Shown here: positions 9,584 through 28,371 of the stretch, piece by piece | Position numbering within the stretch: position 1 is the first letter of the stretch | How the letters are laid out: each line of letters begins with the position of its first letter | The notes under the pieces: model-generated | Seen by the model: only the letters and a program-made list of their open reading frames with translations | What the model was told of the DNA's origin: nothing | Databases searched by the model: none | DNA from: a virus | Taxonomy: Duplodnaviria > Caudoviricetes | Strand: one strand, 5' to 3' | Length of the DNA stretch: 28,929 nucleotides | Virus record (IMG/VR): IMGVR_UViG_3300025398_000067 | Span: 1-28,929 of that record | Position numbers and translations under genes: made by a program

Positions 9584-10450
9584 CTACAAGCCAGCAAAGG
9601 CGCGTTCTATGCCTTCTCTGAGGCTGATTTGGGGTTTGTAGAAGGTCTCCATATAGATTGGGTCGCCCACACGGTAGAAGACCCCTACAGGCTCGGATTC
9701 GAGGTGTTCAATCTTTGGCTCATAGCCAGCGACCTCGGCAACCAAGCGAGCCAAGTCATTGAAGGAGGTCGGGATTCCTGTGCAGAGATTGGCGACTTCG
9801 ATTCCTGCCTCACAACCTGCCAGCGCCCCATTGACCACATCATCGATGTGGATGAAGTCGCGAATCTGATTTCCATCTCCCCAAATCTGGAAAGGGTCAG
9901 CCTTGCGCTTGCCTCGGTCGATGAAGGATGGGAATGGATAATCAAGTGCTTGGTCTGATCCATAGCCCGAGAATGGTCGGAAGATGTGAACCTCGATGCC
10001 AGCCTTGCGAGCAAATCCTGCCAGCATCTCACCCGTCAGCTTCGACCAGCCGTAAGTGAAATCAGGATTCGAGATGCAATCTAGATTGATGTCATCTTCC
10101 TGCAAGTGAAAGCATTCTTCTTTGGTCTGCAATTTGATGGGATAGGCAGCAGAGGATGAGAAGTAAGTGATGCACCCCGGCTTGGTTCGCATTGCCCACG
10201 AGAAGAGAGCTGCATCGATTTCCAAATCTACGGCGAGCGCCAGAGGTTCGCCTTCAATCATCTTGCGACCTCCGACAACTGCTGCAAGGTGAATGACCTT
10301 GTCAAAGTGTTCATTGTTGGTGCGGAAGAAGTCTCTGGCATCTGTGCCATTCAAGATGTCGATGCCATGCAGTTCGTGACCTTGCGCTTTCAGCTTGTTC
10401 CAGAAGTGTCTGCCAACGAAGCCTTCGTTGCCTGTGATGAGAATTTTCAC
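9584..10450 (-). CDS. NAD-dependent NDP-sugar epimerase/dehydratase (extended SDR)
   Basis: TGNEGFVG Rossmann motif, HLAA, FSSSAAY, YGWSK catalytic YxxxK, RDFIHIDD. Confidence 0.93.
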   Translation of the reverse strand: MKILITGNEGFVGRHFWNKLKAQGHELHGIDILNGTDARDFFRTNNEHFDKVIHLAAVVGGRKMIEGEPLALAVDLEIDAALFSWAMRTKPGCITYFSSSAAYPIKLQTKEECFHLQEDDINLDCISNPDFTYGWSKLTGEMLAGFARKAGIEVHIFRPFSGYGSDQALDYPFPSFIDRGKRKADPFQIWGDGNQIRDFIHIDDVVNGALAGCEAGIEVANLCTGIPTSFNDLARLVAEVAGYEPKIEHLESEPVGVFYRVGDPIYMETFYKPQISLREGIERAFAGL

Positions 10451-11118
10451 TCGCCCCTCAATTCTGTAAGGAGTTGAATATATGCTGGACTTGCAAGATA
10501 GGCATTCATCGCCTCAAAATCGGCTGAATAGACCTCTTGCGCGTTCACCGCAAGGTAACCCTCATCCCACTCGGCCTTGCCAGCGACCGGGTGCAGATGC
10601 TCCACAATCACCTCTGGCATATAGCGAAGAGCGCCAAGGTCTTGCCCGAGCTTCATCCAGAAGTTGTCGAGGTAGAGGTGAATCATTCCTTGCGGAACCA
10701 TTCCCCCAAGTGCCTTGACAATGTCACCTGTCATGGCGATTGCCGTTGGCAAGTTCTCGCCTTGGAATAAGTCATTGCCATAGACCAAGCCTGTGCCGAG
10801 TTCATCGAGAGCGTTCAAGAAGTGAACATCCCAATTCATCGTTCGTGGGCGGTGGTCATCGCCAATGAATGCGAAGTGGCGGTATTTGTCTTTCATCAAG
10901 TTGGCGGTGAAGTTCAATGGCTTTGCCATTCCCTTGCCATCCTTCTTGACGATGAAGATGTCTGCCCCGGTGTCGAGGTAGGCATCAAGAGTTGGATCGT
11001 CATCATCTACAACAACGAGCAAATCAGATTCGGTCTTGGTCTCATCGAATGACTTGAGCAATTCCTTGATGGAGTCGGGTCTTCCCCGAGATGGCACGAT
11101 TACGACGAGATTTCTCAT
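10447..11118 (-). CDS. Glycosyltransferase, GT-A fold (GT2-like)
   Basis: VIVPSRGRP start, VVVDDDD, FIGDDH metal-binding motif, C-terminal EHLHP. Confidence 0.85.
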   Translation of the reverse strand: MRNLVVIVPSRGRPDSIKELLKSFDETKTESDLLVVVDDDDPTLDAYLDTGADIFIVKKDGKGMAKPLNFTANLMKDKYRHFAFIGDDHRPRTMNWDVHFLNALDELGTGLVYGNDLFQGENLPTAIAMTGDIVKALGGMVPQGMIHLYLDNFWMKLGQDLGALRYMPEVIVEHLHPVAGKAEWDEGYLAVNAQEVYSADFEAMNAYLASPAYIQLLTELRGE

Positions 11119-11405
11119 TCGCTCACCAAGATTCCGAGAACATCTTTGCTGGTCAGGATGATGAGAGCCTTGCCCTCAACTGTGACCTCGGTTGCGCCGT
11201 ACTTGGAGAAGAGGACTGTGTCTCCGACCTTCACATCCATCGGGATGCGAATGCCGTTCTCGTAGCGACCAGCACCGACGGCGATGACAATGCCCTCTTG
11301 TGGCTTCTGTTGTGCCTGATCGGGAATGATGAGACCCGAGACTGTGACTTCCTCTGCTTGCTTTTGCTGGATGACGATGCGGTCATCGATTGGTTGGATT
11401 GGCAT
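11115..11405 (-). CDS. groES: Co-chaperonin GroES (Cpn10)
   Basis: PIDDRIVI, SGLIIPD mobile loop, KPQEGIVIAVGAG, VKVGDTVLFSKY. Confidence 0.97.
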   Translation of the reverse strand: MPIQPIDDRIVIQQKQAEEVTVSGLIIPDQAQQKPQEGIVIAVGAGRYENGIRIPMDVKVGDTVLFSKYGATEVTVEGKALIILTSKDVLGILVSE

Positions 11406-22554: not shown

Positions 22555-22596
22555 GCAGGAAGGTTGAAAGTCAGGGGGAACTCTCAACCTTCCTGC
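22555..22596. terminator. Long hairpin at the end of the capsid-linked glycosyltransferase gene
   Basis: GCAGGAAGGTTGA (22555-22567) / TCAACCTTCCTGC (22584-22596) perfect 13-bp arms. Confidence 0.55.
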
Positions 22597-23300
22597 TTTT
22601 GAGATTGTTGGATTGCGAACGACCGCATTGGGTGATGGTGTCGTTCATCGAGCCAGAACTGTTTGTGGTGCGGAAGAATTGCGCCAGTGTGAGCGTAGAT
22701 TGGGAAGCCCATTGATTTGATGCGCTTGGAAAATAACAAATCCTCGCCGAAATAAGTGCCATCGATTGCGCCTTCAACGAACCATGCCCAATCCTTGCCT
22801 TGGTTTGGCGTGGCTTGCTTTTGCATTTCAAGGAGAACGCTGCGGTGAATCAAGAGACATCCAGTTCCTACCGCATCGACTTCAATCAATGAATCTTCTG
22901 GATAAGCATCAATCGCCTGAAGTCCCTTTTCCGAATCCATTGAATAGATTGTTGGAACTGGGCGAAGGCCGTCATTGTCATCGAAGAATGCAGCAAAGAC
23001 TAGACCTGAGACAATCGGGCGGTCTTTGTCGTGGGCTGAATCAATCAGCTTGTGCCAAGTGGAAAGAGATAATCGTTCATCGGAGTCAATCATCAAGAGC
23101 CAGTCGGCATCTGTTGTCTCCAAGAATGTTTTGACAACGACATTTCTCGACCGAGTTGTCAGGCCGACATTGCCGACTTGCACCATATGATCGAAGTGAC
23201 CATTCTTCTCGCGAGCGACATGAATCAAGTCCATCGCAAGGAGGGCATCAATCGTGCCGTTGTTCACCATGCCGATGCAGACTTTGTGTGAAGATTTCAT
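22584..23300 (-). CDS. Glycosyltransferase, GT-A fold, in the head module
   Basis: RSRN, WLLMIDSD (DxD), EVDAVGTGCLLIHRSV, GEDLLFS, H-K C-terminal motif. Confidence 0.85.
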   Translation of the reverse strand: MKSSHKVCIGMVNNGTIDALLAMDLIHVAREKNGHFDHMVQVGNVGLTTRSRNVVVKTFLETTDADWLLMIDSDERLSLSTWHKLIDSAHDKDRPIVSGLVFAAFFDDNDGLRPVPTIYSMDSEKGLQAIDAYPEDSLIEVDAVGTGCLLIHRSVLLEMQKQATPNQGKDWAWFVEGAIDGTYFGEDLLFSKRIKSMGFPIYAHTGAILPHHKQFWLDERHHHPMRSFAIQQSQKQEG

Positions 23301-23443: not shown

Positions 23444-23475
23444 TTTATTCTCCCCTGTTGATTGTGTTGCGCCGA

Positions 23476-23512
23476 GACGCTGACTCTACCCGTAAAGGAT
23501 AGAGCCAGCGTC
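23476..23512 (-). terminator. 16-bp hairpin after the major capsid gene (terminator or mRNA stabiliser)
   Basis: GACGCTGGCTCTATCC-TTTAC-GGGTAGAGTCAGCGTC, fully paired with two G-U pairs on the minus strand; no U-tract. Confidence 0.7.
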
Positions 23513-23525
23513 AAGGATTTGGCTA

Positions 23526-24875
23526 TTAGTAGCCAGAAGGTGCAACAGTTCCTGTTCCAGAAATTGTTGAGACCGACTTGTTGAAGCGGTGTGCGAGAGC
23601 AGCGTATCCATAGACCTGGAAGCGAACTGTGAGGTTGCTTGAGAGGACATCTGGGAGAACGCGTGTCTTCACGCCTGACTCGAAGAGGTAAGAATCTGAG
23701 AACTTACCGACGAGGATTGGTGAATAGTTGGTGGTTGCGCCGTAGGTCTTTGGAAGTGTTGCATCCAAGAACACAGGAACGCCCTGAATTGTTCCAACTA
23801 GACCAGCAGGTGCGCCTGGATTTGTAACTGTTCCAGCAGCGTTGAATGCCTGTGATGCGCCTGTTACTGGCACAACGAGTGGGCGGTTGCTTCCATCAAC
23901 TTGGCTGGCGAACCAGTACCACATTGAAGGATGCATGACGATGGCTTCTGCTTGCTTGTAACGATTTGTTACAACCTTAGAGATTGCCTGAGCAATTGCC
24001 TTCGCGCCATTGACTGCTGTTGGTGTTGATTCAGTCCATGTTGTTGGGATTCCGTTGGTGGTATCTGCGCCGAGGGTGATGAGACCCTTGAGAGAGCCAG
24101 ATGTTCCATCGCCTGAACCGACAACTGCTGTGTTGAGTTGCAATGCATAGTCAGCCATGAGATCACCGAAGACGAGACGATCGAGACCGCCAGCAAGAGG
24201 AGACTGCTCCACAAGCTGGATTGATACATTCTCATAGCCAGAGATTGTACGAACAGGCGCTGTGACTGTTGATGAGACCATGTCGCGAGTTGTTGTCGTT
24301 GCATTGTCTGCAGACTGGAATGCAGCAAGTGTACCTGTTGTGATCTGTGGGATGTTGATGCTGTCTGTACCAGCAGGCAGAGCCATGTTGGTGACGAGGT
24401 CAGCGGTTACGCGAGCAGCACGAGCGAACTCTGCGTATTCGTTGATGAGGTAGATTGGAGGAACGAAGTCTCCACCAGCGCCATCGGTGCGGGAAATGTC
24501 GCGAGACTCAACTGCGACTTCCTGCTGGTGGCGATAGAGGCGCTCCCATGAAGAGCGATCGTTGCGAAGCTGTGCGCCGATCATGTCGCGGACGAAAGAA
24601 TTCTTTCCATCCTTGTCATAGGTCATTGCCTCTGCGGTGACCTTTGCGCCACCGAATGTTGCAACGCCAGCCTCTTTGCGAGACTCTGCGATTGCTGCTG
24701 TACGTGCTTCTACCTTTTCGGCAGTTGCGATGCGCTCATCGAGCTTTGCAATTTCATCTTGCGCTGCTGATGCTGCATCCAGAGCTTCTGCGCTGACATC
24801 TTCTGCTGCGAGAGTTGTTTCAACCTCGGCAACAAGACCATCGCGCTGCTCCTTGAGCTTTGATGCTAGAGACAT
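23526..24875 (-). CDS. Major capsid protein, HK97 fold, with N-terminal scaffold (delta) domain
   Basis: Coiled-coil N-terminus, GGDFVPP, VSIQLVEQS, GDGT, IVMHP, GTIQGVPV, ILVGKFS. Confidence 0.95.
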   Translation of the reverse strand: MSLASKLKEQRDGLVAEVETTLAAEDVSAEALDAASAAQDEIAKLDERIATAEKVEARTAAIAESRKEAGVATFGGAKVTAEAMTYDKDGKNSFVRDMIGAQLRNDRSSWERLYRHQQEVAVESRDISRTDGAGGDFVPPIYLINEYAEFARAARVTADLVTNMALPAGTDSINIPQITTGTLAAFQSADNATTTTRDMVSSTVTAPVRTISGYENVSIQLVEQSPLAGGLDRLVFGDLMADYALQLNTAVVGSGDGTSGSLKGLITLGADTTNGIPTTWTESTPTAVNGAKAIAQAISKVVTNRYKQAEAIVMHPSMWYWFASQVDGSNRPLVVPVTGASQAFNAAGTVTNPGAPAGLVGTIQGVPVFLDATLPKTYGATTNYSPILVGKFSDSYLFESGVKTRVLPDVLSSNLTVRFQVYGYAALAHRFNKSVSTISGTGTVAPSGY

Positions 24876-24931
24876 TGTTGTCCCTTTCTCTTGGATTGGA
24901 TTGGAACCAGTCGGGGCGAGTGCGCCGAGGG

Positions 24932-27142
24932 TTATGCCTTGCGATTACGCAAGGAATGCTGTTTGACCTTGAGAGCCAACTTCTTCTTTCGGATGTCAAG
25001 GTCTTGTTCTACTGTGGAACGCATTCCAACACTTGTTGAAGAATACGCTGGCAAAGTGACAACCGAGACCTCAAAGAGTCGCTCGATTTGTGTCAATGTG
25101 CGAAGTCCAGCATCGCGAGTCTGTCCATCGGGTGCGACTGTGAATGCGAATGACATCTTGTCCATATCGCCTCGACGAAGTGCCGAGGAAAGTTCCTGAG
25201 CCTTTGGATTTGCAGGGTCAAGTTCTGCCTCAATGTAGAGACCTGTCTTGTCTTGACGAAGTTGCAAGGTTCCTGACTGGCTTGAAGCAAGTGGGATTCC
25301 TTCCATGTCGTGATTGACAAGGAGGAAGACTGGATCGCCAGAAGATAGGGCGCGAGTGAAAGCACCGGGAGCGATGACTTCACGGAAATTCAAGCCATCT
25401 GCTTCCTTGTTGAAGGTTGCAGCGTAGCCAGCAATCCGAAGCGATCCATCGGTTGTATCAACCGCACGAACCTCGGCACTCATTGTGATGCGTTCTGCTG
25501 TTGCCATTGCCTTGCGCTGTTCCATCATTTCGACATCCTCTGCTCTTGGGGCTGGAAGGGCTTTGATAACTGTCAAGATGTCTGGGCGGTGAACCGACAC
25601 GACATCGGTTGGAACCCATCCATTCCCCTGCTCCTTGTAGATACGGACTGCGAATGCTGGCTGGTCTGGTGTTGTCTCTAGGACATAGCCTTCGGATGAC
25701 TTTGCCTGACCCTTGGTGACTACTTTCTCAACCTTGCCCTTGGCGCGACCATTGCTGGTGTTCCAAGAGACGAAAGTTCCTTCTCCGATACGAGCTGCGG
25801 AAGCGCGACCCTCGAATGGAGCCTTGATGGAGTCATCGTTGAAAGCCTTTGCCATCTTTGCATAGTAGGCAGCAACTTTGGTCTTGATTGCATCCTGCTG
25901 ATCGCTTGGGATTTTTACTCCACCGCGAGCGCCGTTCAAGATTCCTGCAACTGCGAAGATTGCTTTTGGAACTGCCTTCAATTCGCCATCGATGATGTCT
26001 GCGAATTGCAACTTGTATGAGCCGAGAAGTTCCTTGTTGGATTCATCGACATAGAAGAATGCTTTGGCGTACTTTGACCAGTCGATTGAATCTCCACCAG
26101 CCCAAGCCTGAACGCGCTTATCGGCTGCTGCTGCATCCCAAGTTGTGTCGCGGTCTGCGAAAGCGAGGTCATCGGAACCAATGACGGCGCGAATTTCTTC
26201 ATCGGTCATCGCCGAATAGGAAATCATCATTGGCATGATGGCTGCATCGAAGTCATCTGGGACATCATCTGCATCGACACCCTGGTCATCGAGGGCATCT
26301 GGTGAAGGTTGGGTGACTTCCTGACCGAGAGATGCGGTCAATTGCCACTTCCAGAACTGATGCTGGTCAATACGACCTGCGAGGAAGTTGGCAACTCCCT
26401 GCTGATTGTAAGCACTAGCGCAATCGAAAGCATCTGACAATTCATCGAGAATAATGTCGTTCGCTGCGAGAAGGTCATTGGCGAGCGCAATTGGGTCTTG
26501 CAAAGTTGTTGAAGCATCTTCGATTGAGCGAAGTGCTAAGAATGAGCCGAGTGTGAATGGTGCAAGAGAGCCGAGCTTGCGAAGGTTCTCCGCAATTGGA
26601 TCGATTGACTCATAAACATCTTCGTAAATCTTCAGGAATAACTTGTGGTATTCGCTGAAGTCTGCGCCTCGGACATTCCAATGAGCGCCGTGAGCGCGGA
26701 AATAGAATGAGACGACATCGGCAAGCAGTTCGGTCAATTCTTCATTCAAGTCTGGAACCTGATTCATGTCTGGCATTTCACTCTCCTTGGATTCCATCAG
26801 GGAAAGCGCCCTTGCGCTTTTCGTGATTTGATTTCTGATTTTTGTTGCCCACTCGAAACCTGGGTCTCCACCCCAAGCCGACCAAGCGACTCTCCCTGCT
26901 GATGGAAAGCCATCTTCCCCTGAATTGAAACCCTCTGCCTTCTTGTCCACTTCGTGCCTCTTGAAGAATGAAAACATTCTCAAGATTGTTTCTGCACTTA
27001 CTGGGTGTCCAGCAGCCAAGTCGCTTGCTCTTTTTTTGCCCACAGGTGTGAAGCCAGAGCCAGCATCACCATCAGCAATCCAACCCAAAGCCATTTTCGC
27101 TTCATCTTGGACTCCTTTGGGAACGCGATATGTTTCAGCCAT
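24932..27142 (-). CDS. Multidomain HK97-type prohead protease: N-terminal domain + Dps/ferritin-like + helical domain + Tudor-like (DUF2945-like) + S78 protease
   Basis: Protease motifs GYAATFN, EVIAPGAF, NHD, KMSFAF and EVSVVTLPAY in aa ~560-708. Dps signature HWNVRG..F..YH..F...Y......D.IAE in aa ~130-272. Lies between portal and capsid genes. Confidence 0.92.
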   Translation of the reverse strand: MAETYRVPKGVQDEAKMALGWIADGDAGSGFTPVGKKRASDLAAGHPVSAETILRMFSFFKRHEVDKKAEGFNSGEDGFPSAGRVAWSAWGGDPGFEWATKIRNQITKSARALSLMESKESEMPDMNQVPDLNEELTELLADVVSFYFRAHGAHWNVRGADFSEYHKLFLKIYEDVYESIDPIAENLRKLGSLAPFTLGSFLALRSIEDASTTLQDPIALANDLLAANDIILDELSDAFDCASAYNQQGVANFLAGRIDQHQFWKWQLTASLGQEVTQPSPDALDDQGVDADDVPDDFDAAIMPMMISYSAMTDEEIRAVIGSDDLAFADRDTTWDAAAADKRVQAWAGGDSIDWSKYAKAFFYVDESNKELLGSYKLQFADIIDGELKAVPKAIFAVAGILNGARGGVKIPSDQQDAIKTKVAAYYAKMAKAFNDDSIKAPFEGRASAARIGEGTFVSWNTSNGRAKGKVEKVVTKGQAKSSEGYVLETTPDQPAFAVRIYKEQGNGWVPTDVVSVHRPDILTVIKALPAPRAEDVEMMEQRKAMATAERITMSAEVRAVDTTDGSLRIAGYAATFNKEADGLNFREVIAPGAFTRALSSGDPVFLLVNHDMEGIPLASSQSGTLQLRQDKTGLYIEAELDPANPKAQELSSALRRGDMDKMSFAFTVAPDGQTRDAGLRTLTQIERLFEVSVVTLPAYSSTSVGMRSTVEQDLDIRKKKLALKVKQHSLRNRKA

Positions 27143-28371
27143 TACTCAAGAACTCCCATCACAGGTGCGGAAGGGTCGGTATCTTCTCCGAGTGAAGGAT
27201 TCTCTCCGCCAGCAGTTACATTGCCAGCAAGAGCCTGATTGAACTTATCTCCGCCCTCGTAAGGTTCCAATCCTTCAATCTGACGAACTTCATTTGGAGT
27301 GCGAGCGCCCATCGAAACATTTATCATGTTCACGCGAGCGCGAGTGATTGCATCTGTACGAAGTAGGGTTGAAGTATCGAATGCGACATCATCTTCAGGG
27401 TCAAGAATGTTTGAGATTGCAATTTCAATTCGACGAAGCCAAGGGGCAATCGTATGAGTGAGGAAATTGAGGGATGCTTGTTCTACATTCTGATAGGTCT
27501 GATTATCGCCAGAGGCCAGGAGTAGGTGCGACGGAATGCGGAAGATGCGAGCGATGTCGCGAATCAACTGCTCGCGAGACTTGATCATCTCTGCGTCGGC
27601 TGCTGAAGTTGTGATTGGCTTGAAGGTCAGGCCATCAGAGAGAACTGCTGGCTTGCGGTGACGGCGATGGGTTGCCTCCCATGTCGCCTGAATGACGCGA
27701 GCCTGTTCCAAATTCAGCTTTTGCGGAGTCTCAAGAACGCCAGAAGGTGTTCCTCCCTCGCCGTAGAACTGGGCAAGGTGGCGATCCATAGCGATGGAAA
27801 GGCCGATGAGATTGCGAGCCTGATTGAGTGGGGAGATACCCACCAAAGATTGAGGCGGTGTGAACCAGCGAAGGTGAAGAATATCCTCACGGTTCATCTC
27901 GTTGCCGAGGTGCAAATAACGGCGACCGGTCATGTCACCTGTTGGAAGCACCTGCATTTGATAAGGGTGCAAAGGAACAAGACCAATCATGTTGCCCAAG
28001 CGATCGCGGTCGATTTTGACATAAGCATTTCCATGCAAAGCCATCGAAGCGACAATCTGGTGAATCAATTCGTAAGTGTTTGATTCTGGGTCAGGGTCGG
28101 CAAGTACATCAGGCAAAGGTCGCATGACTCGCTTGCCATCATTGCCAATGGTGTAGCAGCGAAGTGGCATGGAAGCAACAGAGTCAGCAAGAAGTGAGAC
28201 AGCGCCGAGAACGGATGAGACACCGAGAGCAGTCCATTCATCAATTCGCTCACCAGCAGCCGAGGTCATAGATGTTTGACCATAAAGCTGACTCAATGGG
28301 GAAACATAGTTATTGAATTGAGGGTATCGGCCTACTGTGAAGGATTGGATGCCACGCGAGAAGATGCTCAT
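27142..28371 (-). CDS. Portal protein, HK97 family
   Basis: LHGNAYV, ILHLR, GISPL, IARIFRIP, NVEQ, TPNEVRQIEGL. Confidence 0.96.
   Translation of the reverse strand: MSIFSRGIQSFTVGRYPQFNNYVSPLSQLYGQTSMTSAAGERIDEWTALGVSSVLGAVSLLADSVASMPLRCYTIGNDGKRVMRPLPDVLADPDPESNTYELIHQIVASMALHGNAYVKIDRDRLGNMIGLVPLHPYQMQVLPTGDMTGRRYLHLGNEMNREDILHLRWFTPPQSLVGISPLNQARNLIGLSIAMDRHLAQFYGEGGTPSGVLETPQKLNLEQARVIQATWEATHRRHRKPAVLSDGLTFKPITTSAADAEMIKSREQLIRDIARIFRIPSHLLLASGDNQTYQNVEQASLNFLTHTIAPWLRRIEIAISNILDPEDDVAFDTSTLLRTDAITRARVNMINVSMGARTPNEVRQIEGLEPYEGGDKFNQALAGNVTAGGENPSLGEDTDPSAPVMGVLE

Follow-up and report, generated by a model that had tools for sequence, protein, structure and literature searches.

Predicted processing sites and nested starts in a modular S78 prohead protease from freshwater metagenomes

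The closest described relatives of the gene treated here are the HK97-family prohead proteases (S78, TIGR01543), among them HK97 gp4 and the protease of phage D3. The HK97 protease site has Lys at P1, and the basic tail of gp4 serves capsid targeting. Our example comes from IMG/VR virus record IMGVR_UViG_3300025398_000067, a linear record with a completeness of 89%, whose 28,929 nucleotides were analysed as a whole (the window). On its minus strand, between the genes for the portal and an HK97-type capsid protein, lies an open reading frame (ORF) of 736 amino acids in which four modules, here called D1, Dps, D3 and Tudor, precede an S78 protease domain and a tail (Table 1). The locus shares with the HK97 family the order portal, protease, capsid, as well as the His/Ser dyad, a capsid protein with a delta domain and a basic residue at predicted sites. 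It differs in that the protease has 538 amino acids of N-terminal modules, likely nested translation starts and a predicted P1 Arg, not Lys. The reading that we favour, and hold to be reasonably probable, is that an S78 protease with four swappable modules cuts at the junction Arg residues, in its own tail and in the capsid scaffold, freeing the modules in the prohead.

Phage proteins with several domains and an assemblin-like peptidase at the end have been described before; according to the available text on these polyvalent proteins, the peptidase is always C-terminal and likely processes them (Iyer et al. 2017, PMC5512222). Both there and here, several domains, exchangeable in our case, stand before a C-terminal peptidase in a virion-linked protein for which processing and domain release are proposed. 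By contrast, Dps, Hva1-Tudor, D1, D3, junction sites and internal starts are not named in that text (figure 4 and the FTP supplements of PMC5512222 may include such architectures), and in the window the part of the peptidase falls to the prohead protease of the operon itself. Conflict-effector domains (MPTase, ART, PBECR, 2H and others) have no Pfam match in the 736-residue ORF, where D1 and D3 are without assignment; 2H does occur in other proteins that carry D3. T4 gp21 and SPN3US gp245 offer another parallel, since a single protease acts on a short motif both in itself and in numerous head proteins; their substrates are separate genes with propeptides cut after Glu, whereas the window modules are fused (PMC10052503, in the part available). 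A literature search, with most subscription papers outside its scope, returned no account of this architecture, of the border co-variation or of the nested starts, and the available parts of PMC7824862, PMC7412058, PMC7689252, bioRxiv 2022.09.09.507160 and 10.64898/2026.03.04.709575 do not describe the window protein.

The assignment to the S78/HK97 prohead proteases follows from the profile score (PF04586, 131.5 bits with a cut-off of 21), the His/Ser dyad and the position between the portal and a capsid protein with a delta domain. Relatives were taken from the best 120 of 813 protein matches and from 75 loci. Across 124 sequences, H611 is present in 120 and S664 in 119, the remainder being gaps. 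Pfam spans within the ORF are Ferritin 134-273, Hva1_TUDOR 455-499 and Peptidase_S78 556-708. Nonsynonymous polymorphism (pN) is well below synonymous polymorphism (pS) in every module. Contigs from four runs, one of which is possibly the source, carry the ORF without an indel, which rules out an assembly artefact as its origin.

Table 1. Features of the head-gene region of the window (↓, predicted cut)
Feature	Position	Strand	Basis
Portal protein	27142..28371	-	Phage_portal E 3.8e-79
Protease polyprotein D1-Dps-D3-Tudor-S78-tail, 736 aa	24932..27142	-	TIGR01543 112 bits (cut-off 59)
D1, aa 1-111, helical module	26810..27142	-	partial phrog_2859 match; AF2 pLDDT 90.6
Junction S-A-R111↓A112, predicted cut	26807..26818	-	R in 123/124
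Shine-Dalgarno AAGGAG (26788-26783) and ATG M123, predicted Dps-led start	26774..26788	-	56/57 ORFs <=-6 kcal
Dps/ferritin-like domain, aa 123-275	26318..26776	-	PF00210 E 1.9e-12; PDB Dps matches
Acidic variable linker, R318 last residue and sole Arg	26189..26317	-	mean conservation 0.44
Junction E-I-R318↓A319, predicted cut; mostly M-P-R↓S in relatives	26186..26197	-	conservation
D3, aa 319-446, unnamed alpha/beta module	25805..26188	-	AF2 pLDDT 89.4
Junction E-G-R446↓A447, predicted cut	25802..25813	-	R 124/124, E444 123/124
Hva1-type Tudor module, aa 447-533, basic (pI 9.7)	25544..25804	-	PF11160 E 3.1e-6
Junction A-P-R533↓A534, predicted cut	25541..25552	-	R 124/124; P1' Ser 121, Ala 3
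Shine-Dalgarno GAGGA (25540-25536) and ATG M539, predicted protease-only start	25526..25540	-	47/56 ORFs <=-6 kcal
E557VR↓A560 at S78 start	25474-25463	-	within S78 domain
S78 protease domain, aa 556-708, H611 and S664	25019..25477	-	PF04586 E 4e-38
G-M-R708↓S709 predicted self-cut and basic C-terminal tail	24935..25027	-	conservation; shared with passenger-free proteases
HK97-type major capsid protein	23526..24875	-	PF05065, TIGR01554; HK97 gp5 match
Predicted delta domain, aa 1-125	24501-24875	-	PF05065, TIGR01554; HK97 gp5 match
Capsid E123-S-R125↓D126, predicted maturation site	24498..24509	-	E-x-R↓D in 42/42 scored

Module borders and the predicted cut sites

The strongest support for cutting at the junctions is a Lys/Arg co-variation seen across lineages in the sequences. 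The border of D3 is defined as the residue eight before a conserved Leu, and it is compared with the protease's own predicted C-terminal site. Among 133 copies of D3 the border residue is Lys in 88, Arg in 14 and Ala in 14, and at the flanking positions Lys and Arg together reach at most 8%. In the 44 copies that are not adjacent to the protease, Lys at the border goes with Lys at the protease site in 32 and Arg with Arg in 9; Arg is found with Lys once, Lys with another residue twice and Lys with Arg never (Fisher p 2e-8, or 2e-6 when the window's family is counted once). Concordance is thus 41/42, where per-protein use of Arg and Lys would lead one to expect 21.8, with a maximum of 34 in 20,000 draws. 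Arg/Lys composition was rejected as the cause (0.50 vs 0.55, p 0.35). Within the proteases, the residue at the first-strand site agrees with that at the C-terminal site in 38 of 39 proteases scored for both (8 more are unscored). A quick tree of D3 scatters the Arg-bordered copies, with 10 changes and weak support.

The same can be followed by eye in cultured phages, where CRP-811, S-CBS3 and phiPsal1 have Arg borders, DC31 (Limnohabitans) and Riverbug Lys borders, BayC (Streptomyces) and DSL-LC01 Ala borders, and HGTV-1 Glu-Leu/Met borders; the motifs at the non-Arg borders look cognate. Actinophage MuF-protease fusions carry repeated (L/V)-x-A↓A/S borders (BayC gp11, L081; DSL-LC01, L078; representatives P0124, P0129, P0163 and P0260). 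These borders predict a phage protease class specific for Ala; herpesvirus assemblin has a similar Ala↓Ser specificity.

All of the motifs that the initial annotation had listed are present where it placed them: E316IR↓A, E444GR↓A, E557VR↓A, SAR111↓A, APR533↓A and GMR708↓S in the protease, together with H611 and S664, and E123SR↓D126, EAR56 and ESR64 in the capsid protein. E557VR↓A lies inside the S78 model, which starts at 556. E-x-R-A occurs three times in the ORF, a count reached in 61 of 20,000 shuffles, and R-A nine times, reached in 916 of 20,000; both motifs were picked post hoc. What does not stand is a strict E-x-R↓A consensus. Glu is at P3 in 3 of 89 unique linkers between Dps and D3, and E-x-R-[AS] is in none of 33 linkers between D1 and Dps or of 58 between Tudor and S78. 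It is kept before Tudor in 14/15 and, where D3 is absent, in 14/14. E-x-R is restricted to three sites, those of the capsid, Tudor and S78, with the addition in remoter relatives of the position before Dps, where M-E-x-R↓D resembles the capsid site. The junctions had been said to mirror the capsid site, but P1' is Asp in the capsid and Ser, Ala, Met or Asn at the junctions. In the aligned family, the junction consensus reduces to Arg with a small residue behind it. The linker between Dps and D3 is the most variable part of the protein, yet all 89 variants have a single Arg at a fixed offset.

Two of the six protease sites were rejected as evidence for cargo. The passenger-free proteases of RHph_Y3_1 and 569R6 begin with a nearby E-x-R and finish with x-x-R↓S, so EVR↓A at 557 and GMR↓S at 708 are generic among S78 proteases and neither is specific evidence. 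In the capsid protein, the mature start of HK97 maps to about residue 129, and a second Arg near the predicted site is not invariant.

To judge from the alignments, the point at which relatives lose or exchange a module is exactly an Arg with a small residue after it. Of 195 sequences with hits, a redundant set that includes partial ones, 136 have the full architecture, 22 are without Tudor, 16 without D3 and 1 without both, and Dps is replaced in 4, the remainder being partial or differently headed. Where Tudor is missing, the join reads GR↓S in 21/21; where D3 is missing, E-x-R↓A comes directly before Tudor in 16/16, with both Arg residues retained in 12. The proposal of homologues that swap modules at conserved E-x-R↓A junctions therefore stands for the exchange at Arg, with the motif itself conserved at the Tudor junction only. 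So too the idea of a self-processing modular polyprotein, which the swaps and the Lys/Arg co-variation support, is a likely reading once its strict consensus is dropped.

A cultured actinophage, Pontimonas phiPsal1, encodes a 484-residue multi-module Arg-type S78 protease (gp6; L215:784-2238), with modules that by eye include a Cys-rich HiPIP-like one and a D1-like one. In other relatives, a helical acidic module with no Pfam family sits in the Dps slot (L052, L070, L072, L094, L101, L139), and a shorter N-terminal module is found where D1 would be (L049, L052, L094).

Nested translation starts

In-frame internal starts in a maturation protease gene, together with self-cleavage, are known from Mu gpI/gpZ, lambda C/Nu3 and herpesvirus UL26/UL26.5. 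In those genes the inner product is the scaffold behind the protease, whereas in the window it would be the protease itself or a form led by Dps. Two such predicted starts, at M123 and M539, had been overlooked in the initial annotation; this pair of conserved Shine-Dalgarno and Met sites, marked at synonymous positions, is new here. Sites were scored at -6 kcal or better (Table 1), and M539 is present in 123/124 sequences. In a codon test on 49 ORFs, one of them identical to the window, the Shine-Dalgarno Glu codons are GAG in 44/44 and 35/35 before M123 and in 42/42 before M539; other Glu codons are GAG in 581 of 2,088, and fourfold sites are just 0.27-0.69 identical. These counts indicate that both sites are under synonymous selection. 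Internal starts before D3 or Tudor were rejected, since a Shine-Dalgarno signal is found in 2/47 (in the Met-rich linker between Dps and D3) and 0/14.

We consider it likely, from the codon pattern, that the starts at M123 and M539 are used. Given a selected Shine-Dalgarno site with a Met at each, co-terminal products of 80, 67 and 22 kDa are predicted, all of which retain the basic tail.

Processing in the prohead and its rivals

In the mechanism that we propose, the tail, which is likely capsid-targeting by analogy, would recruit all three products into the prohead. The 614- and 198-residue products from M123 and M539 would set the ratio of protease to passenger. The protease would then cut after accessible Arg residues, namely R111, R318, R446, R533, R708 in its own tail and R125 in the capsid scaffold, so that D1, Dps, D3 and Tudor would be released as separate folded domains; its specificity would call for an accessible linker with Arg at P1 and for no strict E-x-R↓A. 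In the D3 model, R318 and R446 lie close to the termini, where confidence is lower. Self-cutting at the junctions, taken alone, is likely on the sequence evidence. That the freed domains persist in virions is more doubtful, and we lean slightly against it: the least certain part is whether domains of 9-23 kDa would survive and be retained by the mature head, with Dps then able to bind iron or DNA there. More tentative still, and on balance unlikely, is a mobile kit of small cargo domains for the head, shared among tailed phages (D1, D3, Tudor, a Dps-like one and more), which would plug into proteases, portals and scaffolds, have borders tuned to the protease of each phage and reach the mature virion intact. 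In this lineage, a Dps-like cage loaded into the capsid would then shield the packaged DNA, and the nested starts would balance cargo against protease.

Several observations weigh against the favoured reading. The co-variation pairs two predicted sites, both read from sequence; 54 of the 133 D3 copies were dropped because they have no detectable protease motif, and 35 more, which abut the protease, were left out of the independent set because their site is shared with it. The D3 tree is poorly resolved, and its starred branches force just 2 changes. Arg precedes Tudor in one XkdF Lys-type lineage (3 loci), and both Lys and Arg borders occur among the fusions of portal and D1. Five R↓A/S sites within domains are conserved (R38, R149, R205, R466, R597), most Arg residues of the ORF hardly vary among close relatives, and the AF2 model places R111 in a helix (92-120). 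Three further Glu columns in Dps are 0.85-0.95 GAG. A stand-alone D1 in PaBG (PaBG_00148; L214:5007-5339) sits outside a head operon.

The rival that survives best, although unlikely in our estimate, is that the modules are cut and discarded as the first step of ordinary S78 self-destruction; they would act only in the cytoplasm or while the head is assembled, and would be absent from virions. It is a live rival because, in the parts of the reports available, the cleaved capsid protein alone remains after maturation of phage D3 and the protease band is gone from its Prohead 2 (PMC12749128), and propeptides usually exit the head, with clearance sometimes incomplete (PMC10052503). The conserved in-domain sites and the generic nature of EVR↓A and xxR↓S point the same way. 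Against discard, both D1 and D3 have a predicted compact fold, are under purifying selection and recur almost exclusively on head proteins, and precise borders with a single Arg fit release better than degradation.

An improbable alternative is that the modules, once freed, enter the host by ejection and serve there in counter-defence or in protecting DNA. 2H phosphoesterase, MuF or ChaB domains occupy the same slots in other phages; the available text of PMC5512222 sets out such a model for polyvalent proteins, and that of 10.64898/2026.03.04.709575 reports a prohead protease able to trigger CBASS. No match of function or fold for D1 or D3 favours ejection, however, a folded Dps 12-mer would be too large for a siphovirus tail, and the modules are lost easily among relatives. 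Least probable of all is that the junctions are not cut, their Arg residues being structural caps or relics of ancestral gene starts while nested translation alone yields separate products and the long forms stay whole: the two selected internal starts, the M-E-x-R right behind an internal start in distant relatives and the helical setting of R111 would fit, but the D3 and Tudor borders keep Arg without a Shine-Dalgarno signal, and relics would not follow a Lys- or Arg-type protease.

If release in the prohead is right, protease specificity and capsid cut sites could be read from module borders in sequence; an actinophage study states, in its available part, that the capsid cut site was not predictable (bioRxiv 2022.09.09.507160). 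It would also point towards virion-borne oxidative protection in freshwater actinophages and suggest how proteins might be loaded into capsids by a natural route. The same design is present in the cultured phages phiPsal1 (Pontimonas), CRP-811 (Roseobacter) and S-CBS3 (Synechococcus).

Passenger modules elsewhere and the surrounding genes

The analysis defines two abundant unnamed domains. D3 has no match in Pfam, PHROG or NCBIfam, and D1 belongs to no named family, matching phrog_2859 in part only. Both have confident predicted compact folds (AF2). A fold search of 48,161 chains gave best Z scores of 5.0 for D1 and 3.9 for D3, with none at Z >=8, which does not show that the folds are new; PDB sequence searches using alignments of D1 and D3 found no match covering either domain, and an Atlas search with them found unnamed clusters only. 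D3 has 2,985 representatives (50% identity clusters) at E<=0.001. When 90 of the best 150 carriers were run through Pfam, most had a protease (S78, XkdF, Mu-type or Clp) or a capsid domain; viral matches include the ChaoS9 prohead protease. D1 is estimated to occur in 11,000 viral stretches, on portals, other proteases and protease-capsid fusions as well as stand-alone.

At about 20 loci (L159-L212), D1 is fused to the C-terminal end of the portal, and its border is Lys or Arg. In a set of short D1 proteins (P0278, P0280, P0281, P0284; L147-L149, L157), the borders are Glu↓Ala, which suggests processing of the T4 gp21 type. The neighbours of PaBG_00148 are putative RNA 2'-phosphotransferase and topoisomerase genes, and gp148 is not mentioned in the available part of the PaBG paper.

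The Dps module resembles Dps mini-ferritins in its sequence match and in a ferritin-like domain with an H-H-D-E centre: H154, H166, D181 and E185, which we take to be the four ferroxidase-position residues of Dps, are invariant in 124/124. It differs in being embedded in a protease precursor and in scoring below equivalog cut-offs (NCBIfam, 37.4 bits vs 114), so the domain is filed as Dps-like only. A separate lineage (L152, L173, L184) has the order X, D1, a HAD-like domain with a DxD motif (by eye), Dps and S78; the proteases that carry Dps are thus of more than one architecture.

The window sequence occurs in freshwater metagenomes; there are no RNA datasets among its listed carriers. A WhiB gene in the window points to an actinobacterial host. 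The portal stop and the protease start overlap (TAATG), and internal promoter or terminator signals are no higher than in shuffles. Right behind the capsid stop, a strong hairpin without a T run (23475-23514, minus strand) is a possible terminator. Downstream, a glycosyltransferase gene (22584-23300, minus strand) adjoins the capsid gene, and an epimerase, a second glycosyltransferase and GroES are encoded at 9584-11405 (minus strand); with the glycosyltransferases and the epimerase, virion glycosylation is possible.

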